From Bilabrum cf. latius (taxonomy: Eukaryota), in NCBI GenBank assembly GCA_965178125.1, contig OZ237745.1:124001-188000 (forward strand): a stretch of DNA of 64,000 nt, in the 5' to 3' direction. Positions 15,285 through 52,329 of the stretch are shown here, piece by piece. Made by a program: the position numbers and the translations under genes. Every line of letters starts with the position of its first letter. The first letter of the stretch is position 1. Under the pieces are notes generated by a model that searched no databases, was not told the DNA's origin, and worked only from the letters and a program-made list of their open reading frames with translations.

Positions 15285-15860
15285 TTAGGTTGATACTCTT
15301 GCCTTCTTTTCGTCTGGATCTAGCGGTGATGAACCATTCTTGCTGCCAGCACCCGTGCCGCTGCCGCTATCCTATTCAGAGCTGGCGCTCTCCTCCCGTT
15401 CTCGCTTCATTCCCAAGGCCTGTATCGACTGCTACCCAGGCTTGGCAATCGAATTACTTGCTGGTGAAGTTGGTCCTACATGCTTCGCACCCTCGGTGTG
15501 CAGAGGCCCCACGAGCTGAGATTCTGCCGCTCGCTGGCTAGCCGCCTTGGATGAGTGCACTGGAGAAGTGCTGCTACTGGTGGAAAATATTCTTTTGCTA
15601 ATTGATACTGAGCCAGTACTGCCTAATTTGGCTGATTTTGTCGAAATAATACCGCGAATCGCACTTGAATAGCCTTCCAAAGTCGAGACGGGTGTGGCCC
15701 CTCCAACTGATGCCAGTAGCGACGATTCGAAGCGGAATATCCGCTGCTCAACGCGATGCAGCTCCGTCAAAATGTCTGAACTTATCTAGATCCTGTCGTT
15801 CTCGCTGCACATGGCCAGGTTTGCAAATATTGAAATGCCGCAGGCGCGGTGAGGCATCAT
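15285..15860 (-). CDS. Eaf6/MEAF6-like histone acetyltransferase complex subunit
   Basis: ELHRVEQRIFRFESSLL...LEGYSS...KRIFSTSSSTSP resembles the Eaf6 core. Reads through TAG 15786, 15432 and 15372 and ends ...DEKKARVST-TAA (15285-15287). Start position uncertain. Confidence 0.6.
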
Positions 15861-17276: not shown

Positions 17277-18559
17277 ATGCTGTCCATCTCGGATAAGCAG
17301 TTCGCTCAGATCAAAGCTGATATTATACAAAAGCTGGTGGAGGGTGATCGTAGCCCCAAAGGGTCTGTAGATGCCCCAGTGCGAGGATTGGTTCGAGCCA
17401 TCAATTGTCACCCCAATCTTGTGACGTTGTCCAGTTGCTCTGGGCGAATCAGCCTGTATGCTACCGCCCTTGGGCCAGAAGTTCCATCATTAAAGGGCTC
17501 CGGGGGTTGGTTGCTCGCTGCCCACAGAGAGGTCGCAGCCAAGGAGTGTTTCGAGCTCGTTCAATCGGTTGTTGGCACGGCTGACGTGGTGCTCTTCAAG
17601 CATGAAACGATGATCCTGCACATTCTGTGTAAGACTGTCGAGGAGGCTCGGCGCATGCACGCTGTTTCGATCGACTCATCATTCAGGGAGAGTGGCATCG
17701 TGCTGGGGAGGCGAGGCCCCGTTGTGCAGGTGCGAACAACGTCCAGCTTGATGGAAGTCCCGCTAATTATCCGTGGCACCCCCGTGCTCGAGTGCCTGCG
17801 CCGCTCGGAGCAGCGCGGTGCAAGCGCAGCAACTATGGTCCCCGAAGCGTTCGAGCTGCTCGTGCAGGACGCGAACGCTCGGTTCCGACGCAACCGCGAG
17901 CGCACGGCGCGGTTCTTTGACGCGTTCGTCACAGCGTTCGGGCACGCGTGCGGCGCCCATGCCTTGCCCAGGACCCCCGACGACGACAGCACCGGGGGCG
18001 TCTCGGGCCGCGCAACGACAGGTGCAGTCGGGGAAAGAGTCGCAGACGCGCGCCGAGGCGGAGACGTGACGGGCGCCAAGCGCAGGGGCTGGGAGCTTGG
18101 AGGAACGATGGAAAAAGAAGCAGAAGGAGAACTTGAAAGAGGAGGAGGACCGGGCGAAGTAGTGCCATCCACGCAGCCAATTTCTGGCGCTGCCGGGGGA
18201 GTGGGGACACCTTCCCGAGCACAAGGTACCGGCGCGAGTGCCGTGCGCCAGCTGCGGAACCGGTATCGGCGGCCCCTCTCCATGGGCTGGCGCCCGCTAC
18301 CGCTGGCAGGACCCGACGGCAGACGGCCCCGCGAGCCACCCGCCCCCACCGCCTCGATCGCCCCATCGGCTGGCAGGCGCGACAGGTCAGTGGCCCTGGG
18401 CCTCTCTGACAAGAGCCCGGGGCACGTGCCCTCACTCCCCGTTGCATCCAGGAACAGAGACAAGGGACTCGGCGTGCTGCGGTGGGGGGCCGGCGGATGC
18501 AAGCTGCACCTGCCTCTACTGCGTGCGAGCACTTCTTCTTCTGCTGCTGCTGCTGCTGG

Positions 18560-18594
<35 letters not shown>

Positions 18595-21500: not shown

Positions 21501-22187
21501 CGCTCCTCGAGGGCTCGGCTGGTGGCAGACCTGGCCAAAGAGGGCCCGTGGGTGGAGGTCAGGGAACACGGGGCCAGGTATGCACTGGACGTGGAGCGGG
21601 TGATGTTCTCCAGGGGTAACGTCAACGAGAGGGCGAGGGCTGGTGGATTTGCCGCGAGCGGCGAGACGGTGGTGGACATGTTCGCCGGGATTGGTTATTT
21701 CACCATCCCGCTGGCCATGAAGGGAGGCCCCTCCAGGGTGGTAGCCTGCGACTGGAACCCCGACGCCGTGGAATGCCTGCGGAGGAATGTGGCCCTCAAC
21801 AAGGTGGGCGGGATCGTGGAGGTGCGGGAGGGCGACAACAGGGAGCAGCTCAAGGACATGAGGGGCAGGGCGGACCGGGTCCTCCTCGGGCTGATCCCCT
21901 CGTCTGAGAGGGGCTGGCCCACCGCTGTGGGGCTGCTCAAGGATCGAGGGGGGCTCCTGCACGTGCACGGTAATGCGAGCGAGAGCGACCTGCCGCCCGT
22001 GTCTCGGGCCTGGGAGGAAGCAGTGGTGTCCTCGATCGACGCGATGGCCCGGGAGCAGGGGCGGCCATGGGCCGGGCAGGTGCAGGCGGTACATCTGAGC
22101 AAGGTGAAAACGTACGCGCCGCGAGTGATACATTGCGTGCTGGACGTGCAGTGCGGAGGAGAGCGTGAAAGGGGTGCATCTGACTGA
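17277..22187 (+). CDS. tRNA wybutosine-synthesizing fusion protein TYW3-kelch-TYW2 (TYW2/3/4 type), 1636 aa
   Basis: N-terminal TYW3 motifs DRSPKGSVD, TLSSCSGRI, FRESG. Central kelch motifs LLFGGR, WVLFGGR, ARYGHA, LGDMWMFD. C-terminal Met-10+/TYW2 motifs VMFSRGNVNER, VVDMFAGIGYFTIP, ADRVLLGLIPSS, VKTYAP. One frame across TAG 18915, 20304, 20673, 20775, 20802 and 21048; TGA stop. Confidence 0.9.
18541..18869 (+). repeat. Coding microsatellites: (GCT)n poly-Ala and (GGTAGT)n Gly-Ser
   Basis: GCT run at ~18541-18597 and GGTAGT x6 at ~18833-18869 inside the TYW gene. Confidence 0.85.
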
Positions 22188-26148: not shown

Positions 26149-27975
26149 TCACCTCAGAGCGCGCGCGCGCAGACCGCCCGCACCTGCCCTGGCCTTGCCA
26201 GCTCGCGAGGAGCCGACCATGCCCTTGCCGCTGCCCTTGCCAGCGGGCGCCCCAAACACGTTCCAGAACCGCAGCGTCTCATCAGCGCCGGCCGAGCACA
26301 CCGTGGCCCCGTCAGGGCTGGTGGCCAGGTGCAGCACGCGGGCAGTGTGCCCTGTGAGCTCCTTGACGCGCGCCAGGCTGGGGTACTTCCAGACAGTCAG
26401 CTGGTTCTGGCTGTACCCATGGGACGAAAGCAGCTCCTTCTCGTGGGGATTCCACGCCAGGGCGCACACCTGGGACCCGGTGTCCACCGAATCCAGCTGC
26501 GCTCCCGACTCTGCGTTCCAAAACTTGATGCACCTGTCCGCCGTGCCGCCTCCCGAGGCGAGGGTGTGCCTCTCCCAAGGGCACCACGCGAGTGCCTTGA
26601 CCGCGGCGCGGTGGCTGGCAATCTTGTGCGTAGGTGCCACGGGGCCAGAGGCGGGGGCGGCGCATGCCACACCAGCGGCACCAGCGGTGGCCGCGGACGA
26701 GGCAGCGTCCCAGATGCACAGCAGGTTGTCGTTGCCGCCAGAGGCCAGGAAACGTCCGTCCGGTGACCACCGCAGGCCGCAGACCTCCTGAGAGTGTCCT
26801 GCCAGCGTGGCCACGGCATGCTGCCTGACCCTGACGTCGTGGTGCACGATGGTGGCGTCCCTCGATCCAGTTGTCAGCACGTGCTTGTTCCAGTCCATGC
26901 TGCCCACGCGGTCCTGGTGCCCGTCCATCGTGCGCACGAGCTTGCTCTGGGTGACGTCCCACAGCTGGGTGCGGGCCTGATCCGTTCCCACGGCCAGATA
27001 GCCTCCACCCTCCTTGACCCACTTGACCGAGGTGACGCTGTCTCCGCTGCCCAGTGTGGTGAGCTCGTCGATGCCTCCCGTGGATGCGTTCCACAGGTAC
27101 ACCGTCGGGCCCAGCGCAACGGCCAGCAGGTCAGCGGCGCTCCAGTCCAGCAGGTTGAGGTAGTAGTCGTTGGCCAGGTCGGGGGCGTCCAGGATCCGCT
27201 CGGGGGCGGAGGGGATGTGGCGAGCGCTGCCGGCGGAGGCAGAGGCGCGCCCAGAGGACGCGCCCGCCCTCGCCCGGCTGCCGCCGTTGCTAGAGTACAG
27301 GACAGAGTGGCCGCCATGGAAGCCCTCAGGGGCCTCGGGCTTCTTGCCCGCGAAGGCAAGCACCCGGTGCCCGGTCAAGGACTCCCCGGCGTCTCCTCCC
27401 GCGCTGGAAGCCGCGGTGGCGCTGCCGTCCAGAAGGCTGGACGACAGCGCTGCCTCGAACTTCCTGCCGGCCTCGCCGCTCGCGGTGCTACCAGTGCTGG
27501 AAGCAAGGGCGGCGTGCGAAGCGTCGATCTTCAGGCTGGCGCGCTGCGGGATGAACCGATCGGCACCACCCTGCGAGACGAACGAAACAGTTGGTTGCCA
27601 CAAAAGCGCAGTGAATGAAAAGCAGCTAGGGAGTCTATAATTCAAGCTTAGCAATAGCACACACTAATTCTGCCTTGCAATATACCCTATAGAACGCAGG
27701 ATCGCGTGCGAGAGGTCTCAGCTGAGTTTCGCGCGCGAACTATAACAGAGCCATAAATGCCACTATATCGGAAGATCCGGTACCTACATGGCCTCCATAT
27801 AGATCAAACTAACCTTAGGAGTCTTGCTTGACGCCGAACTACGCTTTGAAGGGGTCTTGGACGAATCCGAGGGACCCTCATTGGCCACAGCGGCCGCCTG
27901 CAAGGCCTTGCGCTTCCACCGGGGAAGCAGGGCCGAGTCAAGCGGCTTTTCGCAGCACTTCAGCGCATTCTCCAT
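26149..27975 (-). CDS. CDC20: APC/C activator CDC20/Fizzy
   Basis: C-box DRFIPQR, PERILDAPDLANDYYLNLLDWS, WD40 repeats (HSQEVCGLRWS, LASGGNDN, AVKALAWCPW, ADETLRFW) and an LR tail. Exon 1 is 27975-27814 (PRWKRK); intron 27571-27813. TGA stop; no TAG. Confidence 0.93.
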
Positions 27976-28219: not shown

Positions 28220-28723
28220 TCAAAGTGTGGCGTTGCTGGAGGCACACAGCGCTCTACATCCGGCCCACACCGACAGCAACAGCCCGATCCCGCAGCCTAC
28301 CAGCGGAGCCCCCACAATCTGCAGCCGCAACTGCCACCACAGCCGGCCATCCATGGCTAGCTCCAGCGGACTACGCGCCGATAAATCGCACATCGAGCCG
28401 GGAGTAGCCTGCGCTGTGCACCATCCACCCAGGCACACGGCAGCCACGAGGCTCAGGTCCTCCACCAGCCGCACCAAAACGGCGTGATTCTGTACCATGC
28501 TCAACCAGAAGGCATCGTGTTTCCATTGTTTAGAGTGGCCTGCCTCCTCACCGTTCCGTCTCCTGCCCGCACGCACAACGGCTGCCAGTCCCATCCACTC
28601 CCATGCCATGAGGGCGAGCAGGTGCTGGCATATCAGGCTAGATGGGGAAACAGCTGAATTTAGCAAGTTTTCCCTACCGTACACGACCGAAATTGTCCCG
28701 CCACCGCCGCTGGCATTGGCAAT

Positions 28724-28754
<31 letters not shown>

Positions 28755-31700
28755 GCCGTGTTGCTTCGAGCCTCGGCGCTCCCATCTGCTTTCTCACTTT
28801 CAGGCTGGTCCCGACCAGTAGCACTCTCCTTGTCACTATCATCACAGCTTAACGACCGATCCAGCTCGCCGCCCATCATACTCGCCGCTCTCATGTCCGC
28901 AAAATTGCTGGTTGCATCCCCGCCTTCTGTCTGCTCATTCTCCTACCGCTACAGTCGATCCTTGCTGCCATAGGGGTGACGACCATTGCTAGCCCTCAGC
29001 TCTGGGCTGCGAGGAGGCAGGTACCTGCGCATGCGGCCTGCCGCGGGCGCGACAGATGGCCGCAACCTTCTCTTGCACACCCCGTGATGCACACACAACA
29101 ACGTCCCCTTGATACACAGGCCAGCCACTAGGCCCCCTAACAAGATCAAGCCGCATACCGAGAGCCGCGCTGCAGCCATCGACGCAGCCAGCACTGCCAA
29201 CGAAACGAATCGCCACGACAACAGAACCCACAGGATTTCACGGTTCCCAACAATCGCGGTTGTATCCTCTGCAGGACGGATCGGCGCGCCACTCGAATCG
29301 GAGCTCGAGGCGGCAAAGACACTCTGCACGTTGACCATGCTACCAGAGTCGTATATATTGCGCTCATCATCCATGCTTGCACAGGCGCCTGGTGCAACGG
29401 GTTCGGCCCGTGATGTTTCAAGTGCATCGACCCAAGCCCCTGCGGGTTGGCCATGACCGCCGCTGCGCTGCCCGTCGTGTAAAGGTGGCATGTGTCTAGT
29501 GATACTTGCAGATGGATCCTCCTCGGAGTTGAACTGGCTCTGCAAGCCCACCTAGGAGGTCACGACCCCATCGGAACTGCGGCTGACTCGTTCGGTGGCC
29601 GTAGATAATATCCCCAACTCCTATGGTTGCATGATCTCGCGCGCCTCAGTGACTGCCAGGCCCACTGCATCCACACCGACAAATGCATCTGCCCCCGACC
29701 TATCTTCTGTCCCATGCACTGGCTGAATGCCTTCATCTGATACATCATGATACGGTGCAGATGGTGCCATTAAAGTTGGCATCAGCCGCATAGTCAGGCT
29801 CGGATCGGGTGCAGACATGCGAAGTAGCTTGACTCCGTCACTTCCCTCAACACCAAGCAGTCGACTGCACCGCGCCCACGGCACCCCACACCACGACATC
29901 AAAGCCAACACCCACACCATACCACTCGCCACGCAGTAAGCCCACAGCCACACGCCCGCATGGACCGACGAGCCATGACACTGCCACACCGATGCCGCCC
30001 GCCCGCCCCGCAGGCATGGCAGCTCCACATTGGCCCGGACGCTCCCTGCATCCACCACGGGCAGCCACACGCCGCCCTCAGACTCCCCCCGTAACACATG
30101 CACGAGTCGCTGTGCCACGCTGCCGGCGCTCCTGCCGCGCTACATGCTCTCCGCCGTCTGCAGGACCGGATGGATCACCACCTGCACATCGATCTCCACC
30201 GGCAGCACCTTCGAGCATGCCAGCGGCTCAATACGACGCACAGGTGACGAGTCCGGGGATAACGGATCGCGCCTGCTGCAGTTGCGATCCATCGGCTGTA
30301 GCGCGCGGTGCTGCAACACACGCACCTCAATCATGCGATCGCTCGACACGCCGCCTGACACACGGATGCCGGTACTGTTCGTGCTGCTGTTGTCCTCGCT
30401 CCATTCAGCCATCACGTCTCTAATGTCCATGGTCAGCTCGATCTCCAGGATGGACAGCTGCGTGGACTCAGGATCGGGGTACGACAGGCCATAGCCCAGA
30501 CGGTCCGGCCCGATCATCTGCGCCCGCGGCCACATGTTCTGATCAAATGCCAGCGTGAATGACACGAAGGCGTGTGAGGCGGGCTCTCGCTGGGCCCAGC
30601 GCGACTGGAATGTGTCGGGCACCAGCAACGCGCCCTTGTCGGGCTCGCATGACAAGACATGCTCAGCTGCACTGGGCTAGATCTACTCGCACCCCAACGG
30701 CGCGAATGCTATGCTGCCACGCGCTGACCGGGCGCTGCACGCTGACCCAAGCGCGGGCTGGCCGGTCCAGTACGAGTTCCACACCCTCGAGATCGATGCG
30801 TCCAGACGCCAGCCGTTCCACTAATGCGAGCTTGCTTCATGCTCTGCATCCACAGCAATGCGACTGCCCTCGTCGCACACGGCCCGGCATACGGGCCTGT
30901 ACCTGTACGCACCCACAGGCGAAGTGTCCCCGCACTCCCACCGGCCACCCAACACGCGAGGCAGTGAGGACTCGGGGTCCGGAGGCACGATCCTGTCGAG
31001 CCGAGCACCGCGGTACCGGGCAAATGGACCCTGCAGTGGCGACACCGTGGTGGGCACGTACCACGATGGATTCGAGTCCTGAGACTCGTTGCGCTGGCTG
31101 TCCTAAAGCGGCAGATGACTCGGCCCATCATTCAATGCCTTGCCCTCCGCATGCCAGAGCCCGTCCGTGGGGCTCTAGTCGCGCCTGAACTCCCCGCCCA
31201 CCGTCACGGCCCTCTCCATGGACGCCGCGGGATAGTCAAAGTGCATCAGATCTGCGTTGAACTCTGTCGTGTTGACATAGTACTGCACCGCACAGGCCAG
31301 GCGGGCCTCTCTTCGCCAGGGCGGCAGTGAGAGCTGCTTTCGCGACCAGGCTTGCGTCGCGTCGGTCACACCCGATGCAGACCAATGCGACTGATTGCCA
31401 CTACTGGTGTTGCTAGCAGTGGGGGCGCATGATTGCGAAGAGACACAGGACAGGTCGTCCAGCAGCACGAGCACCTTTGCTCCAGACGCCTCGCAGTACA
31501 GCCCCGGCGCGAACAACACTGAGGATGCGCGCTCTGGTGTCTCCACCGGCACCGAGTCCACGATCACCTGCGTCACATGCACGTGATTCAGCCTCCAGGG
31601 GTACTCGTGACTCGGCAGCCCGTGATTGACCAGGTCCTCCCCATCCACAGGCAGAATGGCCACAGTGCCGGGAGGGTACGTCACCGTGACGACCTGGTGC

Positions 31701-32912
31701 CACCGATTGTACATGCCCGCCCCGTGCTCCGGTATGCCTGACGCAGGAGCCCCCTACCACTCGATCACCTCAGACAGAGAAGCAGCGGTGATGCTGTCAA
31801 TGTAGCTCTCGTCCAGCAGGAAGCTCGTGTGGTTGGCCAGCTCGGTGCCCACGGGTGGAGCCCCGCTGCAGTTGGGCTCGTGGCCCGGTGGTGCACGAAT
31901 ATCACCTTTGATCTATCCACTGTAGCTCAGGTCCGGCCACAGTGTGGCCTGCCTGCATGTGTCGTTGGGCGCGATGGGCTGGTCCATCGGAGTGCACGCC
32001 TCGGAGTAGATCTCCCGGCGGCATGTGACGTGGTGCATGATGTACCGGGCGTGTCGCATGGCATATGCCTACTGGTAAGACATCTGCACTCCCGTGGACA
32101 ATGGATAGTACGCCCACTGCCATCCCGGATCTGCCATGAAGAGCTACGGAGCCCAGTTGGGGACGGTTTTGGTGCTCGTCGCCGGAGGCCAGAATACGGT
32201 CGTGTTCACCCACTGCCAGTATCCCGATGTGACCAGGCCGCCCGATACAAACTCGTATGGATTGTTCACGTCAGGAAACTAGTAGAACCACTGCTCCTCC
32301 GTCCACGGTTCAACGCTTCTGGTTGGCGGGTACAATGCCGATTCTGGCGGAACATCTTTGCCCGCTCGCCGAAGCGCGATTGCAGGGCCGGCCTGCGCAG
32401 TGGCTGCAGCTGGTATGTATCCTGATGCAGCAGCTTGCAAGCTTGGCATCCCACCTACTGAAGGATGCTCACCGGACGACGCTAGTGGGCTGACCTCGCC
32501 AAATGGTCCGTAGGTCCAGTTCCATCTGTGCATGCCGACCTACCCCTTCCACGGCTGCTGCACTATGCCACAGCCGCTTCCAACAGCCCTCGCCATTGCA
32601 TCGCTTGGTCGAATCACTCTCACTGACCGCTTTCGACCGACAGATTCTCCGATGCCGAGATCCGAGGCTGGCGGTGCAGACTGCCAGGAGGAATCTGCGA
32701 TAAAGATATCGATATCAGTACAACTTATAGTGGCTAAAATTAGATTGATTTGCATTTGCAGCATGCAACTCACTGCAGTTGGATGGAAAGCTGGCCATTC
32801 CTGTGTTCAACGAAACATCTGCTGCGCTGATCTGCCTGTATAAGTCTTTTTTCGCAGCTTCGACCATCCAAACAGCAATGCATAGTATCAGATGAATACT
32901 TAACGACCACAT
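28220..32912 (-). CDS. Uncharacterised ~1550-aa protein with signal peptide, large Trp/Cys-rich ectodomain and several C-terminal hydrophobic segments
   Basis: ATG 32912 (MWSLSIHLILCIAVWMVEA) and a 40-nt GT-AG intron at 32734-32773. A single frame then continues through 16 TAG and no TAA to TGA 28220-28222, linking nine track ORFs. Confidence 0.75.
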
Positions 32913-33342: not shown

Positions 33343-33932
33343 ACCTGTAGGACCCCTTAGTTATGAAATGAACATATTTGGGTATAGTAGCGCACTCACG
33401 GCTTCATACTCGCACGGTGACGAGCTATCTTGGCACCATGACCGCTGAGCAAGCGCTATGTGCGAAACAGTCAGAACACATCTCAACTCCACACCAATGC
33501 CCGCAGCCACTGCACAAGACTCGGACGCCTGCTAGCACACAGCTACAATGCCCGACTCACAATCTCCTGGTCTTCCAACAGCTGCACTTGCTGTCGTACT
33601 ATTCCACCAGCTGCATAGTACATAGGCAGCCTGCCAGTGGGGGCTAGTTCTGCTGCATGCCCAAGCGGAGCCTGCCTATCCATCGCACCTTCAGCCGGTG
33701 AGTATTTAGAGCGTCGCACCCAGTGCAATGATGTGGTGGTCGCACTGCCCCCACACTTGGATACTTAAGCTTAATGTTGACCACGAAAATGATCGCTGCT
33801 GCTGGCTGGCCGCGCTCGCGATGGTCTCCCCGACATCGGTCGGTGGGTGGCGCTAGTAGTATTCCATACAAATATGCACTAGCTACAACAAGAACGAACA
33901 TGTACCACGCAATGACATACAGAGAAACACCA

Positions 33933-35396
33933 TTATGATCCAGCTCCTCCACCAGCTCCGCCGATCCGTTCTTCCAGCGGGCCCACTGCAGGCGCCTGCA
34001 CCACGCCGTCCTCCGTGCCAGCAGCCCCACCAGCTCCAGCTGCATCCCCTCCAGATGCCGCCGCGCCTCCGCTGGCCGCTCCGGAACCTGCCCCACCCGA
34101 GCTCGCACTCGCCGCCGCGGCCTCGCCGGTTCTCATGTTCTACATAGCCTTGCCCGATTGGGTGCGCACCCTCTCCACCTTGCTCCGCATGAGCGCCTCC
34201 AGGACTCGCATGCCCCCGCCCTCCCTGATCACCGCCTGGTTGGCGGGGTGCACGCTCAGGTTTCTCAGCGCCCTGGCGCACTGTGCCTGCAGCTCGGTGG
34301 CGTCCAGCGAGGCTGAGGCGAGGATGGGCGGGATGCCGCCTGCTTCCCCGATGGAGGCCTCGTTCTCATCTGCGGGCCAAAGAGAGAGGTACATGACCGC
34401 AAAAAGATGTAGGCTCGCATGCTGATGGAAAGAGCTGCAACGAAGACAAAAGATTCGCCTTCCTCTCTCGATTTGCAACGAGGATACAGAATAAAATGTC
34501 GCGACACACCGGAGGGCCCGATCCCTCAAGCCCCGCGCGGGATGGACGAGCAGCAGCGAGGAAATACCACCAGCTGCCCGCCCATGTCCCCGCACGAGCG
34601 CACCGCATGTCAATCTAGCGCCGAAAGGTGGCCCGGCCTCGTCTTCGAATGATGTGACGGGCCAGGTGGATATAGGCAGCGCAGCATATACAAGCAAGCA
34701 ACACAACACGGCAGCAAACCGACTCGATCGTCTCACCGTTGACAGCTAAGTTTGCAAGCGCAGCTACCGCCTCAATGCGCACCGGCACTGAAGCTTTCGA
34801 AGCCAACAATATGAGAGGCGGCAGGGCGCCCCGCTCGGCGATCAGTCGCTTGTTGTCCGCATGAACAGCCAAATTGGCGAGAGCTTTGGCAGCCTAGCGC
34901 TATGTGCTGACCTACTCGCAGCCTAACAAGTCAACAAGCATGTCGACACCCCCTTCTCGCACCATTGTGACCTGGTTGTCTCCTGACACGGACAGGTTCG
35001 CCAGTGCATGGGCCGCTAGCCTCTTTACCTCCGGGTCTTCCGACTTGGTCAGGGGAAGGAGCAGCTTGAGTCCACCCAATCGCACAATCTAACCCTATCT
35101 TCGCGGCTTGACGGCCTCGTTTGCGAGCCGCTCAGCGACTTCACGCTGAATCTCTGGCTCGGCGCCGTCCGCATACGTTATTAGTCGAGCTAGGTGCAGC
35201 TCCAGCTCCTCAATGAATCCCTCATCTGCGTCAAGACGTAGACATCAATACTGAAATTCTTAAGCGATGAACCATACGGGATCGAACGAAGGAACGAGAT
35301 AAATCGAATCTCCATGCAGAGCTCACCTTCGTCGGGTCGATCAACCACAGTTGTGCTGGAGGGTCCCTTGCTCGCACTACTCCCCTAATTACCCAT
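33933..35396 (-). CDS. N-myristoylated VAC8-like armadillo-repeat protein
   Basis: MGN*GSS myristoylation start; introns at 35226-35326 and 34370-34736. Reads QREVAERLANEAVKPRR*G*IVRLGGLKLLLPL, RLAAHALANLSV, T*R*AAKALANLAV, ELQAQCARALRNLSV. Seven TAG (35385, 35095, 35089, 34912, 34900, 34894, 34140); ends in TAA at 33933-33935. Confidence 0.88.
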
Positions 35397-35617
35397 ATTA
35401 TACTAGTCTTAAATGCGGGGAAAGGCTTGCGCCTGTCCCTCGCTTTGCGAGTACACAAGGGAGCGATCTAGAATGTCTGCTGCCGTTTGCGGAGACCGCT
35501 ATGTATTTCTTAAAGTGTTCGTTACATTTGAGTAACGCGCAATTACAAAATAAGATTATCCCTTTGGTTCGCCGAAGGTGCGCACTAGATTTCGACCAGT
35601 AAATAGAAAGCTGCAGC

Positions 35618-37767
<2,150 letters not shown>

Positions 37768-40226: not shown

Positions 40227-43200
40227 ATGTCGATGAAGCTGCGGCATATGAAGACCTTGCTGCCGCCGACGGACGGAATGTGCAAGGTCACCGCAATCTG
40301 CTTTTCTCCGAACAACAGGCGGCTCGCCGTCATCACCGTAGAACGAATAGTATATCTGTTTGACGAAAATGGAGAGAGAAAGGACAAATTCTCAACAAAG
40401 CCCAGGGAGAAGGTGAGTTTCGAGCGGTTCCGTAACCAACGGCATGGAGACATTTCGCCTTCGCCTTGTCTCCCGTGCTGCAGCGTACGCGGTTGCCCTG
40501 TGTGGTTTTAATTGCATACGATATAGGGCCGCGTTTCTACTACTAGAATCCTGGCATGCGCAGGGAGGCCCCAAGACGTACATGGTCACGGGAATGGCTT
40601 TCAGCCCGGATTCCACAAAGCTGGCGGTAGCCCAGACAGACAACATCGTATTTGTGTATCGGTTAGGTTTGGAATGGGGCGACAAAAAGACCGTGGCCAA
40701 CCGCTTCTAGACGGAAAGCCCGGTCACGACCGTGTGCTGGCCGTCTGGACGGCCGAACGACGTGGTCTTCGGACAGGCCAACGGAGCCGTTCTGGCGGGA
40801 CACTCCAAGGCGGGTTCCCGAGCAGCTCCTTGCACAGCACTCTATGATGGAGGCTCGTTTACCGTGTCATCCTGCGCCTCCCCGGACGGGCTCGGCTTCC
40901 TGTCGGGTCATTCTGACGGCAGCATCTATCGCTTCCACTTCGGGGACGGCACCGCCGGCCCCGTGCACCAGCGGTTCGCGGTGCACAGCGCTGCCCCACA
41001 GGCCCTGTCTTGGGGACAGAGCGTGCTTGCGGCAGGGAACGACGGCAGGGGTGAGTGAATGAGACGATAGGAGACGAGACGGCCACGCACAAAGCCCGCA
41101 TGTCGAACCACGCAGGTCGCTGGTGCCCCTCCCTTCACCCCTCACCGCCTCCTCCTCCCCGGTGCAACGCGGCAGCTCTTGTTGCTTCTCTACGCCCCCT
41201 TTTCGTTGCGTTTGGATTGACCTTGTTGTACGCAGTGACTTTCTACTCCGACGACGGCGCCGCCGAGCGGACGTTCGACTATTCGGACCAGGCCGACCGT
41301 GTCAAGGGCTTCCAATGCGCAAGCTGCAGCCCGGGGGGCGACTCGATGGTCGTGGGTAATTTCGACTGCTTCTTCGTGTACGCGCTGTCCCCGAGGTCCA
41401 GCGAGTGGGAGGAGGCCGAGCGCAAGGACGTCAGCAACCTCTACACTGTCTCTGCACTGGCCTGGAAGCCGGACGGGTCCAGGGTGGCCCTGGGTGCCCT
41501 CTGCGGTGTGGCCGACCTGCTGGACGCGTGCGTCAAACGGGTGCGTTACAAGGGCAAGTTCGAGTTCACGTACGTCTCGCCCTCTCAGGTGATCGTCAAG
41601 AGGCTGTCGAATGGTGCCAGGATCGTGCTGAGGAGCTCGTACGATTGCGAGGTCACCAGGATCAACATATACAGGGACCGATTCCTCGTCGCTCACACGC
41701 CTGAGACGCTGCTGCTGGGTGACCTCGAGTCCTGCAAGCTCTCCGAGGTGGCCTGGCGCAGCTCTGGCAAGGAGCGCTTCAACTTTGACCACCAGAGCGT
41801 GGCACTGGTCTTCTCCAGCGGTGAGATCGCCGTGGTGGAGTACGGTAGGAACGAGACTTTGGGCGGCTGCCGCACGGAGCACATGAACTCCCACCTACTC
41901 TCCGTGCGGATCAATGAGCGGCCTCCCTCCGCCGACGAGATCGAGAGGATGGGCGGCGCGGGGGCCGTGGCGCCCACAGGGTTGGCGCCGGCGGCGTCTG
42001 GCGCGGGCGCCGACGTGCCCGGCGAGGGCGATGCGGGTGGCTTCACCAACAAGAAGCTGGCGTACCTGATGGACGCGCAGACGGCCCGCGTGGTCGATCT
42101 GGCCACTGGGGAGACCACCGCGCAGCTGCAGCACGACACCCGGATCGACTGGCTCGAGCTCAACGGGAGGTGCAACCTCCTGCTGTTCCGGGACACGAGG
42201 CGGAGGCTGTACCTGTACAACATCTACAAGGCCGAGCGGCACGCGCTGCTCACGAGGTGCAGCTACGTGCAGTGGGTGCCGGACTCGGACGTGGTGGTGG
42301 CGCAGAGCGGAAGCACGCTGTGCATGTGGTACAACATCTACGCCCCTGACAAGGTCACGACCTACGAGATCAAGGGCGACGTGGAGGAGATCGAGAGGGT
42401 GGAGGGACGCACCGAGGTGGTGGTGGACGAGGGCATCAACACGGCCGCCTACACGCTCAACGAGGGCCTCATCGCCTTCGGGACGGCGCTGGACGACCGT
42501 GACTATCCGCGCGCGATCGACATCCTTGAGGGTCTCGAGCTCACTCCAGAGACGGAGGGCATGTGGAAGCAGCTGGGCGATACGGCGCTCAAGACGTCTG
42601 GCGATCTGGCGGTGGCGCACAGGTGCGCGGCGGCGGTCGGCGACGTTGCCCGCGCCAGGTTTCTGAGCAAGACGCTCAAGCTGGCGAAGCTCGCCGAGCG
42701 CAAGCTGGGTGGGGACGGGCGCGATTTCTGGATGGTGCGCGCCCGCATGGCCCAGCTGCGGGGCGACCTGCGCGACGCCGAGGGCATCATGGTGGACGTG
42801 GGCAAGCTGACCGAGGTGATCGTCATGTACCAGACGTTCCACATGTGGGGCGACGCCGTGGACATCGCGGAGAGCCGGCAGATGGAGGAGGCCGCGGCCA
42901 TGCAGCAGCAGTATTTCGAGTACCTGCAGCACTCGGGGCAGGAGGACAAGGCGGCCGCCAAGCTGGAGAAGGACCACGACCAGAAGGGGGCGGTGGCCCT
43001 CTACCTCAAGGGCGGGTACCCCGGGAAGGCCCTCAACATCATCACGAGCAACCCAAGGGCCTTCACCAAGGAACAGATCGAAGAGGTCGCCGCCGCGCTC
43101 GCCGCCGCGGAGATGCCGCAGAAGGCGGGCCAGCTGTTCGAGACGCTTGGCGACAACAAGCGGGCCATGGATGCCTATGTGCGCGGCAACGCCTACAGGT

Positions 43201-46037
43201 CGGCCGTGGACCTCGCCCGCCGCGTGTTCCCCGGAGACGTGGTCCCCCTGGAGAAGGCATGGGGCGACTGGCTCGTGTCCCGGCGGCAGGTGGAGGCCGC
43301 CATCCCTCACTACATCGAGGCCAGGGCACACACCCAGGCCATCGAGGCGGCGCTGCAGGCCAGACAGTACACCAAGGCCTCCCAGCTGATCCGTGACTCG
43401 CTCACCGACCCGGACGAGGCGGGCCCGTACCTGCTGCAGCTCGCCAGGCACTTCGCTTCGACCTCGCGATTTGACGAGGCGGCGCGGTGCTACGCGGACG
43501 CGGGCAGCCCCGAGGAGGGCGTGCAGATGTACGCCACCGCCAGCCGCTGGCCCGAGGCCCATCGGCTGGCGCAGACGTGCATGTCGGAGGAGGACATGCA
43601 GCGGTTCTTCCTTGCCACGTCTCGGCAGCTCAAGGCGCAGGGGTCGTATAAGCAGGCCGAGAAGGTTCTGCTCGAGGTGGGGCTGGTGGACGAGGCCATC
43701 GGCATGTACAAGCAGGCCAAGCAGTACGATGCCATGGTGAGGCTGGTGGCGCAGTACAGGAGGAACCACCTGCAGAGCACGCACGAGCTCCTGGCCAAGC
43801 AGCTCGAGGCGGAGGGCGACTTCCGGGCGGCCGAGAGGCACTACGTGGAGGGCGGCAAGTGGGACGACGCCGTGCGCATGTACCGCAAGGCCGACGACTG
43901 GGCGGAGGCTCGGCGCGTGGCACGGACGCACGGAGGGCCCGACGCCGCGGACCAGGTGGCCTTCGCGCAGGCCGTCGCGATCGGTGGGGAGGAGGGGGAG
44001 AGGCTTCTGAGGTCCCGGGGCCTGATGCGGCAGGCGGTGGACTACCTGTGCAGGCAGAAGAACTTCGACCGGGCGCTTGAGGTGGCCCGCAAGCACAGCC
44101 CTGAGCAGGAGCCCGCGGTGCTGAGCAAGCGCGGGTACTGGCACGAGGACCACGGGCGGTACCAGGAGGCGGAAGAGGACTTTGTGGCCGCCGAGAAGCC
44201 TAGGGAGGCGATCGAGATGTGGTTGCACGCCAAGAAATGGACCAGCGCCCTGCGGCTGGCGGAGGACTACGACCCTGCCAGCGTGCCGCGGGTGCTGCTG
44301 GGTCATGGCCAGGAGGTGGCATCGCAGGGAGACTACGAGCAGGCCGAGAGGCTGTTCCTTGATGCCAAGAAACCCGAGGAGGCAATCGACATGTACATCA
44401 ACGCGAGGGACTACCCCGAGGCGCTGCGCGTGTGCAAGGCCAACCTCCCCTCCAAGGTAGCCGAGGTCAATGCCAGGATCCAGGAGCACGTTGGGGGCGG
44501 CGGAGCCGGGGCCGGGGCAGGCATGGGGGGCGGGCCGGTGGAGGCAGCCCGCGGCGGCGCAGGGGACCGCAGCCGGGGCGGGGAGCAGTCCCAGCAGCAG
44601 GTGCAGGAGATGATCCGCGGCAGGAACCCGATCGAGGTGGCTAGAGGGCTCGAGGACGGCGGGCAAGCCAACATGGCCATCGACGCCTACCTCGCCGCCG
44701 GCAGGTCTGCCGTCTCGTCAGAGAGTGAGCTGGTGGATGCATGGCTGCGGGCCGTGCAGATCGCGCAGCAGCGCGTGAGCTATCGCTACAGCGAGGTCGC
44801 CAGCGCGGTGGGCAACCGCCTGGCTGAGATGGGCGACCACGAGCGAGCCGGCGACCTTCTCGCCGAGGTGTCTCAGTTCAAGAGCGCGATCGACTGCTAT
44901 GTCCGGGCCAAGGCCTGGGACAAGGCCAAGGCGCTTACCTCTGGCCCCGCCAAGCAGTTTGCCGACTACGTGCAGGCTGCTCACACGCGGGCCATCGTGA
45001 AGCGGGGCGGGGCCAGCGGGCAGGAGGTCTCGGCCGCGATCGCCGGGGACGGCGGCAGGGCGGGGGCGGAGCAGGCACTGGAGGAGCTCTCCGCCGCTGG
45101 GCGGTGGGAAGAGGTGCTTGAGCTGGCGGCCAAGACCGGAGAGTCGCAGGTGAACAGGCACGGCGCCCGTTACCTCCGCATGGTAGTAAGCAAGGAGGAC
45201 CCTCTGGAGGCGGGCAGGGCGGCCGTCCTCATGTCCAGGTTTGGGGCCCCCGCCGTTGCCAGCGAGAGCGATTCGTACGAGAGGCTGCTGCGGCTGGTGC
45301 TGGGCGGGACCAAGGCGTCGCACCCCGGGGACGACGCTGTGGTGGCGCTGCGGGAGGTGCTGTACGGCGTGGTGGCCAGGCTCAGGAAACCGTCCAAGGC
45401 GGCGGGCGCGGGGGAGGCACCCGAGCCCAGGGACATGGCGCGGCTGGACCGGCTGCTCCTGTGCTCCCACTATGCCTCGATGCGGGTGGCCGTGATGAAG
45501 CAGAACCTACCCGATGTGGGTCTGCAGCTGAGCATTGCACTGCTGCGCTACTGCGACCTTGTTCCCCCGGACAGGGCCTACTTGGAGGCCTCGATGGCGG
45601 CCAAGGAGAGGGGCAAGCTGAGCCTGGCCTTCGTTCTGTCCAACCGACTGCTGGACGTGGTGGAGGCGGTGGAGGACCAGGACGTGTCCACGGTGGACAA
45701 CGACGACTTCGAGGACACTGATTTGCCTCCTCCGTCCACGTTCAGGCTGCCGAGGAGGCCGTGGCTGACCAAGGCCGAGATCGACGATGTGAGGAACTGG
45801 GTGCTGCAGAAATCCATGGATGACGCCATCGACACCAAGCTGCAGCCGGGGGACATTCCGAGCCAGGAGCAGGCGGGGTGGCAGAAGTGCGTGGCGTCGG
45901 GGTTCCCAGTGGCCGCCAAGGACATGGTGCGGTGCTCGGCGTGCGAGAGCCAGGCCATCCGGTCGGCCTGGAACGCGGTGGTCGGGGCGAGGAAGGCGTG
46001 CCCGTGGTGCGGGGCGGCGCAGACGCCGTACTACTGA
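40227..46037 (+). CDS. IFT172: Intraflagellar transport protein 172
   Basis: MKLRHMKTL..., [69 protein letters not shown], then TPR-like repeats and a C-terminal Cys motif. Introns at 40413-40563 and 41051-41235. One in-frame TAG at 40708-40710; TGA stop. Confidence 0.96.
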
Positions 46038-46335: not shown

Positions 46336-49149
46336 ATGCTGTCGTTCTCGGGCTTTGCCGCTAGTTGCAACCTAGAAGTCATTGTGACATGGCCGTCCAG
46401 TTATGTTTCATCAAACATTTTAGGAGGGTGCAGCAAGCAGCCCATTCGAACTTTGATGCGGGCAGATAGGCGCATTCGCTCGATAGCGCTCAGTCAACTT
46501 CACGGCATTCCAGAGCAGTGCGTGGACGATTTAGAAGCGTCAATGCGCGACGACAGGATGCCGAAGCGCATTGAAATGCAAGTTGAAACAACATCTTATC
46601 TCTCGAAGCACGTTGCAAGATTCAGCAAGTTTGTTGAACGGTGCGGCAACGGTGCAACAGATCTGAGGCTCTCGTTCACCCGGAACGAGAGAACCAGCAA
46701 TAAAACTATCGGAACAGAGCTGGCCAGAAGCATTCATACGATCTTGCGGGGCATGCCGCAGTTGCGAGACCTCAGACTGCGTTTCTCCAAGTGCGGATTC
46801 TCAAGCGAGGCCTCGTCGGTGATTGCGGGAGCGCTTTAGGTATCCCGTGGGTTACAAGAATTTGAGCTGGCTGGTATGGTAGATGCTACCGATGCTACAG
46901 AGCGGCTCGTCTCAGGACTGACCGGGTTGCCGAGCCTGCGGCGGGCTACGGTCTACCAACCCTATTCGCCCCACACTGGGGCCGCTGGCGCCCTGTCGGG
47001 GCTTGTGCGCAGCTCGCCGTCGTTGTGCAGACTGAAAATTTCAATGCCCACCAAAGCAGAATCAGATAACTAGCGGGATTTTTTCGACGCGATCGGCAAG
47101 AGCACGACCCTTACTGAGCTGAGCCTTGGGGCCATGCTCGAGTCTGAAACGTGCGCCGGCCTGGGCGCAGCACTCGCTGCATCTGGCAGCCTGAAGAAGG
47201 TCACGCTGGACATGGGACTCTATGGAGTCGACGATGGAGGTGTCACTGCCGCAGATTTCGCCGATCACCTCGCTTCGGGCATCGCAGGTAGCTCTGGGTT
47301 GGAGACCCTGTGGCTGACTACCCCATTGGGCGGGACCGGTGAAAGCTTCGAACGCGTGCTGGCGGAACATGCAGGGCTCAAGCACGTTGCCATCAGGCCG
47401 TACGGTGACAAAGAGGATAAAGTGATAAGCAGAATGCTGCGAGGACTGGCCGAGAACCCGCACGCTTAGTTACGCAGCCTAGTGCTCCGAGAATGCATGC
47501 CGCAGACGGCCGAGAGCAGCGAGCAGATTGAGGCTTCTTCGTTGCGCGGCATTCTGAGCCAACAATCTCGCTTGGAGAGGCTGCGTGTGATCGAAACGTG
47601 GTTCAAGAGGCCAGGCCATAGCCAGGGCATGGTCCGGTCCATCGAGACCGGTCTTGCGCAGAGCGCATCGCTCAGGTGCCTGACCCTAAGCTGCTGTCCC
47701 ATTGGGGCAACTGATTCTACATTGATCCTGCGCACTTGTTTGTCGCATGCCAAGATCGAATTCTTGGCGATGGCCTTTACCGATATGACCCCGGAATGCG
47801 CGAGCCCGCTGTGCGAGCTCATTGCCGAGTCAACCTCGCTGCACTACCTGGACGTAAGCAACAATCAGCTCGACCTCGGTAGATCGCTAGGCGTAGCACT
47901 AGCGAGCCCCAATGCGGCCCTGGAGACGCTCATACTCACAAAGGCCGGCATGACGGCAGCCGGCACGGCAGGGATTGCTGAGGCGCTGCTTGTGAACGAC
48001 ACACTCACTGAGCTGGACATCTCCGACAACGAGCTCAACGCCAAGGGCGGGATGGACGCCATCGGCAAAGCACTGGAGGTCAACTGCTCCCTTCAAATAC
48101 TGCGAGCGGTTCCGCCCAGCGATGAGCCGCCGTTGAGCAGCGCATGTATACGTAGCATCTCACGCAGCAGATCATTGTGCAGGCTGCAGACCTGTGCTGA
48201 CACCGGGTCCGAGGCTGTGAGCTCTTTGGTCGGCAGCTGCCGCACCTTGCAAGAGCTGTTCATGGTGCACCACCGGATCCTGCCCGCCCCAACACCTGCT
48301 GAATTCGAGAGCTTTGACACGCTGGCCGAGCTGATCGCTGGCGAAGCCCCTGGGCTGCGATCGCTGCGCCTGCGACCCGAACGGGTGCGTGTCATCGACG
48401 AGGCACTGAGCCTGAACCGCGCCCCTGTGGCCATGGGGTGGATGCGGGAGCCGACTGCATTCTAGACGGACCCGCGTGGTGCTTCCACAGCGGCATGCAT
48501 CCTCCGCATGCTGCCAGTGCTGCACGACTGCGGCATGCCTGTGTCTGCGTCAAGCCAGTTTGCGGAAGCCATGCTTGGGTCTCGGCTGGAAGCTGGAGAT
48601 GCAGGCGGGTGCGTCGTGGTGCTGCAGGCGCTGCTGGAAGGTGAGCAAGCGGTCAAGACTGTGCCTGCCATTCACGTGCACGGCTAGCCTCCCCCTAAGT
48701 CGCACTGGGCGGAAGAGTCGCGGTGGGCGAGCGATGCCCACAGGAAGCCGCAGTATCCCGCTGGCGGTGTCTAGCACTGGATGGGTGTGCACGACCTGGC
48801 CCGCAAGCTGGCTAGGGACAAGAGGGGGCGGGACGGGTGGCGCGGGGCCGTGCTGCGTTGTGATGCGCTAGTGGAGCTGGAGGCGAAGAGGAGACGGGGC
48901 CGCATGGCTGTGTGGCGGCGGGCGATGGAGGCGAAGAGGGACGCTGGTAAGGTGTTCCAGGCGGCAAGAGATGGTCGTCCGTTGGAGCTGGGGAAGCGGC
49001 TGAGGCTTGGAGTGCTGGCTGGGGGCCTGGATGCGAAGGGGTAGGTGGATGATGGGGCAGGTGGCACGCGGTTGGTGAGTCCGTTGGAGGCGGCGCGGCT
49101 GGGTGGGCATGAGGAGTGCGTGAAGCTGCTTACTGAGCATCCCGGATGA
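46336..49149 (+). CDS. Ribonuclease-inhibitor-like LRR protein with C-terminal ankyrin-like module
   Basis: LHYLDVSNNQL, LAEAL-type IAEALLVNDTLTELDISDNEL, ALEVNCSLQIL. One frame across TAG 46837, 47071, 47467, 48463, 48685, 48772 and 49042 to TGA 49147-49149. Start uncertain (46336 or 46456). Confidence 0.78.
48758..49134. repeat. 377-bp duplication, copy 1 (copy 2 at 51929-52305)
   Basis: Near-identical sequence at an offset of 3171 with about 5 substitutions by eye. The two track ORFs 48781..49044 and 51952..52215 translate identically. Confidence 0.93.
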
Positions 49150-49276
49150 CAAACTGATTTGATGGCGTCACTGCGTGGTTCGCTTGTTGGCTAGCAATAC
49201 GAAAGAATGATAACTCGACTAGTCTAGGCAGGCGTCATCTGCAACTGTGTAAAGCACAACATTACCCGTCATAACG

Positions 49277-51286
49277 TTACCTTCGCCGGCCAGTCGGTCG
49301 CTTGGAGCCCCGCTTCATCTGTTCTTGCCACCGTGCATCAGCGGCAGACGGCTGCGCGGGCGCAGATACCCCCGCCCCGAGGCCTCCTCCCACCTCTGCA
49401 CCTGGTCCGCCCATGCCGCCGCCAGACCTGCCAAGCACCGACTGCCCGCGCCGGGCCAGACCAGATCGCTTCTTCTTGCCCAAACCATGGGGTTCCCCAG
49501 ACTCCCCACCCTCCCTCACATGCGACCGACTGCCCTTGTCAGCTGCCGCGGCACGGCCGGTCCCGAGTCTTGCACCTCTCGTTGCCGAGCCCCGTCCCAA
49601 GCCCGCGCCCGCACCCGAGCCCGCACCCGAGCCCGCACCCGAACCAAGCCTGCCCGCCTGCACATCTGCAAAGGACACCGGCCCCAGCCCGCTCGCCCCC
49701 CGCTGCTCGTTGAGCGCCTCCAGCAGGGCCAGCCGCTCCTCGCACTCGGAGCGGACCGTCTCTCGAAGAGAATCGATCTCTTCCTCCCTCTCGCGCACCT
49801 GCGCCCGAAGCTATTCCGCCTCGCGGGCCGCCGCAGCAGCAGCCTGGGTCTTCCTCTGAGAGGTACTCGATTCGTCTCGCTCCCCTCTCTCCAGCCTCTG
49901 CTCCGACAGCTGCCGCTGGGCGTCTCGCAGCTCCCTGCGGGCCTGCTCCAGCTGCTCCTCTGCCTCCCTCTTCTCCTGGCGCTCCTCCGCAGATGACTCG
50001 GCCAACCGGGCATTCGACCGCTCTAGCTCCTGCACCCGCACTTTGGCTGACGACAGCTAAGCCTGCAAGTCTGCGTGGGTGCCTGCCGCCGCGCTGCGCA
50101 CCGCCTCGAGCTCTTCACGTGCCTGGGCAGCTGCTCGCATGGCCGGCTCGGTCTCGCCTCGAAGACGCTCCAGCGCACCATTTGCCTAGCCCAGCTACCG
50201 TTCGAGCACCTGCTTCTCGGAAACCGCCCGGGTGGCGATCGCTCTGGCCTCGTCGCGCTCGCCAAGCAGCTGCTCCGCGCTCGCCCTCGCCTCCTCTAGG
50301 GCCGCCACGTCCTCTCGCCGCCGGGCCTCCGCCGCCCGCAGCCGGGACGCCGCCTCTGCCAGCTCCGATCGTGAGGCATCCAGCTCTGCCTGCCGGCTCT
50401 GGGCTCGCTCCTTCTCCTCGTGCTCGCCGGCCCGTGCCTGTGCCAGCTCCTCCTTGTGATTCTTCGCCGCCCTCTCTAGCCCGCGCACGTGCTCGAGGGT
50501 CTCGTGCAGCCTAGACTCTGCGGCGCTCGCCCGCTGCTGCAGCTCCTGCGCCGCCGCACCGCTCGCCCGGGCAGCCCTGCCCACCTCGGCTTCCAGGTCG
50601 ACCACGCGGCGCTCCGCCGCTGTGGCGCGCCGCTCTGCCGATGCAAGGGATGCGGTTGCGTGTTCGACCGATTCGCGGGCCGCCTTAAGTTGCTGCCTGT
50701 GGGTTTGATTCTCGGCCTCTGCTTGCTGAGCGGCTCTTGCCGCGATGGGGCGGATTAGCGACTCCATCTCGCGCCTTGCCTGTTCTATGGCACCTAATGC
50801 GGATTCTCGTGCGTGTTGCAAATCGCTTCGGGTGGCCCGAATCGCTGGGTGCACGTGGCTTATTGCAATAGCTTCTAAGCGAGGCCGGACCGCAGCTAAC
50901 CTTGCTTTCTCGTGTTCTAAAGCATCCGATAGCTTCTGAACGTCCAGACTCGACTTTTTGAGCTAGCGCTACAACTCATCCTCCGCCTATTTGGCATCAG
51001 CCAGGTTGTCCTATGCCTCTAGAAGCTTTGCACGCATCTCGTCTGCCGATGCCAACTCGGACGCCGCTAGCTTCGCTTCAGCCCGGTCGAGTCTGTCTTG
51101 CAATGAACGCATTTCAGAATAAACCAAAAACGACACGCCGCAGTATTGGCAAGCAGTGTCCTCAGCGTCGGCGTATTTTAGATCATCGGGAAGGCTAGCT
51201 GCCGTCGGGCCGTTTCGCAGCGATTCTGCCGTGACCGTCTCATCTTCGTCGCTATCTTCCCGGAATCGCATAGACCCTGACGCCAT
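49277..51286 (-). CDS. LEKR1: LEKR1-like coiled-coil protein, 669 aa
   Basis: N-terminal LPDDLKYADAEDTACQYCGVSFLVYSEM and C-terminal EEIDSLRETVRSECEERLALLEAL match LEKR1 motifs. One frame across 8 TAG (51011, 50987, 50969, 50963, 50195, 50186, 50057, 49811); ends in TAA at 49277-49279. Confidence 0.75.
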
Positions 51287-51582: not shown

Positions 51583-52329
51583 GAAACCCAATAGGAACTG
51601 GGCCGTCAATGGGTACAAGCTGTGGAGGGAGCGCTCAACCCGGATCGCACGACCATCGTGAGACATTGGATCGAGGATGCTACTACTAGCTTGCGCGAGC
51701 CCGTTGCAGCCTCACGCGCGGCGTGTGCCATTCGCATGCTGCAGGGGTTTCACAGATCACTGCTGAACGTATCTAGCATCAGTACATGCGCAAGTGCAGT
51801 CTTGATGGCTCTGGTGGTGGCAGGAGATGCAGGCAGATGCATCGTGGTGCTGCAGGCGCTGCTGGAGTGGGAACAAATTGCACCGCCTGCACTGGGCACT
51901 CCTGCCCGACCGCCGAGTCGCTAGTGGTCCGCTGGCGGTGCCTAGCACTGGATGGGTGTGCACGACCTGGCCCGCAAGCTGGCTAGGGACAAGAGGGGGC
52001 GGGACGGGTGGCGCGGGGCCGTGCTGCGGTGTGATGCGCTGGTGGAGCTGGAGGCGAAGAGGAGACGGGGCCGCATGGCTGTGTGGCGGCGGGCGATGGA
52101 GGCGAAGAGGGACGCTGGTAAGGTGTTCCAGGCGGCAAGAGATGGTCGTCCGTTGGAGCTGGGAAAGCGGCTGAGGCTTGGAGTGCTGGCTGGGGGCCTG
52201 GATGCGAAGGGGTAGGTGGATGATGGGGCAGGTGGCACGCGGTTGGTGAGTCCGTTGGAGGCGGCGCGGCTGGGCGGGCATGAGGAGTGCGTGAAGCTGC
52301 TTACTCAGTACGCCAAGAGTCACCGCTAA
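51583..52329 (+). CDS. Short paralog or fragment of the C-terminal third of the LRR-ankyrin gene; 5' end unresolved
   Basis: AACAIRML and AGDAGRCIVVLQALLE parallel AACILRML and AGDAGGCVVVLQALLE in the 46336-49149 gene. TAG at 51922, 51943 and 52213; TAA at 52327-52329. No clear in-frame ATG at the 5' end (possible acceptor tatgcag near 51582). Confidence 0.5.

Follow-up and report, generated by a model that had tools for sequence, protein, structure and literature searches.

The nuclear code of the organism studied here very probably reads UAG as an ordinary glutamine codon and uses UAA and UGA as terminators, corresponding to NCBI translation table 15. The evidence for this code comes from a single 64-kb stretch of DNA (the window) and includes one TAA gene end with independent support. 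That TAG is sense while TAA is still a stop had been proposed in a preliminary description of this DNA, and this is now borne out by the counts in open reading frames (ORFs) running from TGA to TGA, by the ends of the RNA contigs at the TAA at position 33933, and by the TGA-ended ortholog of an environmental relative, the metagenome contig L001.

The window has a GC content of 61% and contains few introns, which are short and have GT..AG ends. Spliced RNA contigs covering these introns were present in three runs, and the splice joints were absent from the DNA run. The encoded proteins are of eukaryotic types in long exons and include, according to Pfam, IFT172 (the product of a cilium gene), an HDEL-ended GRP94/HSP90, CDC20, a TYW3-Kelch-TYW2 fusion, HPPD, and armadillo-repeat proteins. 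All ORF models were made with TAG read as sense throughout. The coding set comprises 18 likely coding segments (14,562 codons), each running from the first Met, or from an RNA-defined exon edge, to the stop.

The VAC8-like gene and its terminator

The VAC8-like gene lies on the reverse strand and consists, according to the RNA joints, of three exons (35463..35327, 35225..34737, and 34369..33884) with a consistent frame that starts at the ATG at 35396. The coding part of exon 1 (35327..35396; ATG at 35394-35396), delimited by the spliced translation and the RNA joint 35225|35327, begins with MGNxGS and holds a TAG at 35385-35387. The orthologs begin with MG[NAG].. at the same place, and we take this start to be a myristoylation-like N-terminus as in yeast Vac8. 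In the start region (35385-35396) the TAG is codon 4, and an in-frame TAA stands four codons 5' of the ATG. Exon 2 (34737..35225), with five in-frame TAG, is covered by RNA contigs and matches Pfam Arm (E = 5e-23) and, among PDB entries, yeast Vac8 (E = 1e-31). The coding part of exon 3 (33936..34369), joined to exon 2 by the GT..AG RNA joint 34369|34737, encodes the last armadillo repeat and an Ala/Gly-rich tail and contains a TAG at 34140-34142. The TAA at 33933..33935 is the first stop other than TAG in the spliced frame, and is followed by a 3' UTR of 47-49 nt (33884..33932) that is defined by RNA contig ends in two runs of two studies.

The RNA contigs of these runs (X6 and X7) show no difference from the DNA over the three exons and, consequently, neither UAG nor UAA is edited in the VAC8-like mRNA. 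This bears directly on the explanation that the organism uses the standard code and that the ORFs with TAG are pseudogenes, contain unrecognised introns, or are restored by RNA editing from UAG to CAG. Apart from the prior rarity of code changes nothing speaks for it, and its probability is close to nil: seven TAG lie inside exons of spliced RNA contigs identical to the DNA, ORFs of 2,065, 1,690, and 1,528 codons contain 12, 7, and 16 TAG, respectively, and no other stop, the TYW3 and TYW2 domains occur in one frame across TAGs, and TAGs occupy invariant glutamine columns (see below). For the VAC8-like gene itself the standard code is refuted.

The X6 and X7 contigs end at 33884 and 33886, i.e., 47-49 nt past the TAA, and RNA depth, 16-125 up to there, is 0-0.8 in the bin that follows. 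These contig ends are no more than a proxy for poly(A) sites, and no poly(A) tail was visible in the part of the results displayed; TGTAA, looked for as a poly(A) signal downstream of the stops, showed no consistent pattern. The 16 codons between the TAA and the contig end contain neither TGA nor TAA, and the next in-frame TGA is 149 codons off. The abrupt change in composition that had been noticed at 33933 was confirmed by measurement, with a GC content of 0.72 over the final 150 nt of coding sequence and a lower one, 0.52, over the 150 nt that follow the TAA.

A second line of evidence is provided by L001 (positions 1027-2600 of the metagenome contig), in which 140 of the 162 residues of exon 2 are identical to those of the window (88%; ~75% for the DNA). 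The last exons of L001 and the window have the tail motif EDGVVQAP[AT]VGPL[ED]ERIGG in common, and the conservation reaches to nine codons before the TAA at 33933; the protein of L001 then ends with ...GGGS followed by TGA, and that of the window with ...GAGS followed by TAA. Since the tail is kept in L001 it must be coding, and the TAA of the window stands at the stop of its relative, give or take 13 Gly/Ala-rich residues. The window sequence past the TAA shows no likeness to the L001 tail. Because the contigs end before any TGA and the tail conserved in L001 is followed by TGA, we conclude that the TAA at 33933 is the real terminator of the VAC8-like gene.

These observations also weigh on the possibility that UGA is the sole efficient terminator and that UAA is avoided or unassigned, i.e., neither a sense codon nor a normal stop. 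The terminal codons of the 18 modelled gene ends, 14 TGA and 4 TAA, would agree with this, as would the fact that only one of the four TAA ends is independently supported. We nevertheless consider it very unlikely, since the VAC8-like mRNA holds no TGA between its TAA and the contig ends, its 3' UTR is close in length to that of a gene terminated by TGA (the RNA contigs of IFT172 end 27-46 nt past its TGA stop), and the L001 ortholog stops soon past the same conserved tail motif.

UAG at glutamine positions

An exhaustive HMMER search with exon 2 of the VAC8-like gene listed 150 proteins, from which 27 orthologs were retained that are short (138-496 aa), 44-68% identical, and for the most part match the greater part of the exon; almost all of the 123 proteins left out are much longer and show repeat-level identity of 26-41%. 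In the alignment of the 27 orthologs with the spliced window protein (331 codons, seven TAG), four of the TAG columns hold glutamine in the majority of the orthologs, i.e., in 27/27 at aa 134, 19/27 at aa 132, 21/27 at aa 67, and 19/27 at aa 69. The columns of the remaining TAG, at aa 4, 128, and 263, are variable. Serine is absent from the four conserved columns and is the commonest residue (8/27) in only one of the variable ones, so that UAG at conserved serine positions, as in Scotinosphaera, was not found in this alignment.

Four of the five TAG of exon 2 (35095-35097, 35089-35091, 34912-34914, 34900-34902, and 34894-34896) fall in glutamine columns. An independent view of these sites was obtained from a metagenome scan, for which the alignment of exon 2 with 16 orthologs was used as the query and which yielded 67 loci, 66 of them aligning at the TAG sites. 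The five sites are CAA or CAG in 61/62, 55/62, 2/60, 40/60, and 57/60 of the aligned loci, the four in glutamine columns accounting for the values of 61/62, 55/62, 40/60, and 57/60. For the VAC8-like gene in-frame UAG is, therefore, found where homologs have glutamine.

One of these loci is L001. At TAG sites of the window it carries CAA, CAA, CAA, CAG, and TAG, with CAA or CAG at the four glutamine columns, and at two of the variable TAG columns Lys (AAA) and Leu (CTG). Its exon 2 contains three in-frame TAG of its own, one of which falls on Gln84, an invariant position encoded by CAG in the window. In-frame TAG at glutamine positions in L001 indicates that the code is shared beyond the organism of the window. 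No in-frame TAG within an uninterrupted alignment was encountered in the other 65 aligned metagenomic loci.

The ortholog columns, the CAA/CAG codons of the metagenomic loci, and the L001 pairings together uphold the earlier assumption that TAG is read as glutamine, and confirm that TAG in the window stands for glutamine and for neither serine (as in Scotinosphaera) nor leucine. When each of the 20 residues was placed at the TAGs of two armadillo regions, the Pfam Arm scores for K, R, Q, and T were within ~3 bits of each other, so that glutamine was not separated from the other three, and that for leucine was ~20 bits below glutamine. The single TAG of the IFT172 exon pairs with proline in Chlamydomonas (PDB alignment), which is uninformative. 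In an older paralog from the window, GAG stands opposite one TAG, an isolated instance at a variable site, and the TAGs common to the near-identical paralogs reflect their recent duplication.

Codon usage and the other gene ends

The in-frame triplets of the 14,562 likely coding codons include 79 TAG, no TAA, and no TGA. The two shifted sense frames contain 99 and 91 TAG, 37 and 40 TAA, and 196 and 245 TGA, and the three antisense frames 73, 117, and 91 TAG and 35, 22, and 28 TAA. Compared with these five other frames, TAG in the coding frame occurs at the density of an unselected triplet, whereas TAA is excluded in the same way as TGA. This is not an effect of GC3, since CAA codons are frequent among the likely coding codons (100, as against 404 CAG). 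The CAA/CAG counts are 24/50, 9/13, and 9/13 in the TAG-rich genes, and the ratios of CAA to CAG, GAA to GAG, AAA to AAG, and TTA to TTG in the same genes lead to an expectation of 22-33 TAA, of which none was observed. The earlier remark that CAA is common in TAG-rich genes and that the lack of internal TAA goes beyond GC3 is thus substantiated.

As the coding set is partly delimited by TAA itself, which introduces circularity, the count was repeated with TGA as the only delimiter of ORFs. Among the gene ORFs, eight have TGA at both ends (TYW, ARM, CDC20, the 1,528-codon orphan, p34, IFT172, and ORFs of 639 and 920 codons); their 8,248 codons contain 45 TAG and no TAA, while the off-frame density predicts ~18 TAA (P ~1e-8). 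In the other gene frames, when delimited in this way, the only TAA stand at the four 3' ends or at the very 5' margin, ahead of the first Met. Within this one 64-kb window UAA is absent as a sense codon.

These counts speak against the reading in which both UAA and UAG encode glutamine (table 6, as in ciliates and ulvophytes), TAA is rare because of the GC content, and translation continues past the four TAA ends to the next TGA. TAA is indeed the rarest stop triplet in this 61% GC sequence (383 vs. 927 TAG, both strands counted), and two of the TAA ends are followed by a TGA 6 and 13 codons later. However, none of the 22-33 expected TAA occurs in the coding codons although each of the other frames holds 22-40, the eight TGA-to-TGA ORFs have TAG without TAA, the VAC8-like mRNA contigs end ahead of any TGA, and the sequence after the TAA is unlike the L001 tail. 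No in-frame TAA at a glutamine position, as table 6 would have it, was found among the coding codons of the window. We regard this reading as extremely improbable, even more so than that of UGA as the sole efficient terminator.

That UAG also terminates some genes, next to UAA and UGA, is improbable as well, albeit to a lesser degree. The models take TAG as sense, so that any gene end in TAG would have been passed over; however, the 79 TAG in 14,562 codons are close to non-coding density, which shows no sign of selection against TAG. At the 3' end of the VAC8-like gene, the TAG at 34140-34142, 68 codons before the TAA, is located inside the last A[LM]xN[LM] helix motif, a conserved motif, and is followed by the tail conserved in L001. 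The orthologs that reach its position all extend beyond it and, consequently, this TAG is not the end of the protein. A conserved C-terminus directly followed by TAG was not noticed in any of the window models; GRP94 ends with HDEL and then TGA.

TAG is unevenly distributed over the genes. The genes with high GC3 (0.8-0.9), i.e., GRP94, CDC20, HPPD, and IFT172 (8816-11176, 26152-27537, 36175-37005, and 40564-46034), hold 1 TAG in 3,288 codons, and the other segments 78 in 11,274. The same genes also avoid CAA (3 CAA vs. 123 CAG). With TAG and CAA both scarce in this group, TAG behaves as a non-preferred glutamine codon.

The preliminary description had listed four ORFs ending in TAA (15285, 33933, 49277, and 52327) and a TGA at 49147, all of which are correctly placed. 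Only the TAA at 33933 is strong evidence for UAA as a bona fide terminator; the other three are consistent with it and no more. On the reverse strand, the TAA of the NuA4/Eaf6 (MEAF6)-like ORF (15285..15287) is followed by an in-frame TGA six codons later, and that of a coiled-coil ORF of 669 codons with eight in-frame TAG (49277..49279), which is covered by an RNA contig at 49636-51331, by a further TAA after 4 codons and a TGA after 13. With a TGA this near, these two ends by themselves cannot separate a stop from read-through. The labels given earlier to the genes have partial support from Pfam: the NuA4/Eaf6 match, at 24.2 bits, falls short of the cut-off of 25, whereas no family matches the coiled-coil ORF, which had been called LEKR1-like. 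In a metagenome scan with the protein of this ORF, none of the 595 pattern matches proved to be a relative.

The fourth TAA (52327..52329, forward strand) ends a partial duplicate of the C-terminal domain of a leucine-rich-repeat (LRR) gene whose own terminator, on the same strand, is the TGA at 49147..49149. It had been suggested that this pair of paralogs stops at nearly equivalent positions, with TGA in one and TAA in the other. The codons are as described. Near-identity of the two copies extends over ~370 nt and breaks off seven codons before the TAA, which is, therefore, simply the first stop in an unrelated flank; the next in-frame TGA is 110 codons on. The ORF ending at 52327 is a recent partial duplicate and possibly a dead copy. 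The two copies of the domain (48760-49140 and 51940-52320) lie 3 kb apart, and an older, diverged third copy is located at 16224-17111, its ORF ending at 17111. The LRR gene (TGA) and the coiled-coil ORF (TAA) are convergent, with stops 127 nt apart (49147-49279), so that their 3' UTRs must be very short or overlapping.

Decoding, related codes, and lineage

A code in which UAG is glutamine and UAA a stop would call for a tRNA-Gln with anticodon CUA to decode UAG: since a UUA anticodon would read both UAA and UAG, the retention of UAA as a stop implies the CUA form. C34 of this anticodon would be unable to pair with the A of UAA, which would then be left to the release factor, and eRF1 would most likely lack efficient recognition of UAG and keep that of UAA and UGA. 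The same CUA-anticodon logic, on which the preliminary description had also drawn, has already been argued for codes in which only UAG is reassigned (PMC5304391; PMC11687900). The 64-kb window contains no tRNA genes (ARAGORN) and no eRF1 gene. If the reassignment were young and the tRNA(CUA) scarce, this would fit with TAG being nearly absent from high-GC3 genes with high expression.

Nuclear codes that split UAG from UAA are described for a handful of lineages (PMC11687900; PMC5304391; PMC8271138). In Iotanema spirale (Fornicata) UAG is glutamine and UAA and UGA are stops (Panek et al., 2017; PMC5304391). As in the window, UAG alone is reassigned, to glutamine, UAA remains a stop, and a tRNA-Gln(CUA) is deduced, but Iotanema is an unrelated anaerobic metamonad known from its transcriptome, whereas the organism of the window is GC-rich, has few introns, possesses the cilium gene IFT172, and uses TGA as the commoner stop (14 vs. 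4 ends). The ciliates Hartmannula sinica, Trochilia petrani, and Protocruzia tuzeti have the same codon table (table 15), with only UAG as glutamine (McGowan et al., 2024; PMC11687900), and in that paper the CUA anticodon is considered to let UAG evolve apart from UAA. They belong to another lineage, and 93.5-100% of their aligned C-termini are reported to end in UAA (PMC11687900), in contrast to the dominance of TGA in the window.

Scotinosphaera (Ulvophyceae), in which TAG is serine and TAA and TGA are stops (Li et al., 2021; PMC8271138), is likewise an alga with TAG alone as sense and TAA as a stop; it differs in the amino acid, as the TAGs of the window lie in glutamine columns (27/27 at one site). 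UAG is also decoupled from UAA in the rhizarian exLh and the TARA phyllopharyngean MAGs (table 16), where it encodes leucine (PMC5304391; PMC11687900), unlike the glutamine columns of the window. The stop-to-glutamine change itself is shared with table 6 codes, in which UAR is glutamine, reported for many ciliates, Dasycladales/Trentepohliales/Cladophorales, Hexamita, Streblomastix, and Amoeboaphelidium (PMC11687900). There UAA is glutamine, whereas the window has no in-frame TAA and a gene ended by TAA.

Among the named orthologs of the VAC8-like protein, that of Pelagophyceae sp. CCMP2097 is the closest (68% identity), followed by the brown alga Choristocarpus (57%) and Symbiodinium (50%). 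A word-index search with the second armadillo-repeat gene returned 42 proteins with only repeat-level matches of 22-41% (green algae 24-30%), and the GRP94 look-alikes gave no useful signal of lineage. An ochrophyte affinity of the organism is likely, if provisional. The type of code is known, from Iotanema and some ciliates (table 15 in PMC11687900), and the lineage seems to be new. Full-text searches, in a collection largely without subscription journals, returned no account of a code with UAG as glutamine and UAA as stop in stramenopiles, ochrophytes, or non-ulvophyte algae. An independent and unreported origin of the code in a GC-rich, intron-poor, flagellated, ochrophyte-allied alga, shared with at least one relative (L001), is conceivable, with the balance tipping slightly against it.

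Each new code that splits UAG from UAA tests whether a CUA-anticodon tRNA together with a narrowed eRF1 suffices, and a GC-rich alga that terminates with TGA would form a contrast with the ciliates that terminate with UAA. There are also consequences for annotation. If genes were predicted with the standard code, most of the weakly expressed ones in the window would be truncated, since 13 of the 18 coding segments counted contain in-frame TAG. With table 6, genuine TAA stops would be missed; the appropriate choice is table 15.

Some further genes of the window deserve mention. The TYW fusion (17277-22184) is a single exon of 1,636 codons that combines TYW3, Kelch repeats, and a TRM5/TYW2 methyltransferase, connected by long Ala/Gly/Ser-rich linkers, and a word-index homolog search found one relative of near its length. 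In the 1,514-codon ORF at 28223-32764 there are 16 in-frame TAG, and its product has N-terminal domains rich in Trp as well as segments predicted to be membrane-like; this orphan matched no Pfam family and no near-length homolog in the word-index search. An ORF of 899 codons at 56323-59019 encodes tandem peptide repeats, i.e., NPFDGRESPDSMAESG...WREETASEHGV three times, GGPD eight times, and GGSMGAPVA units.
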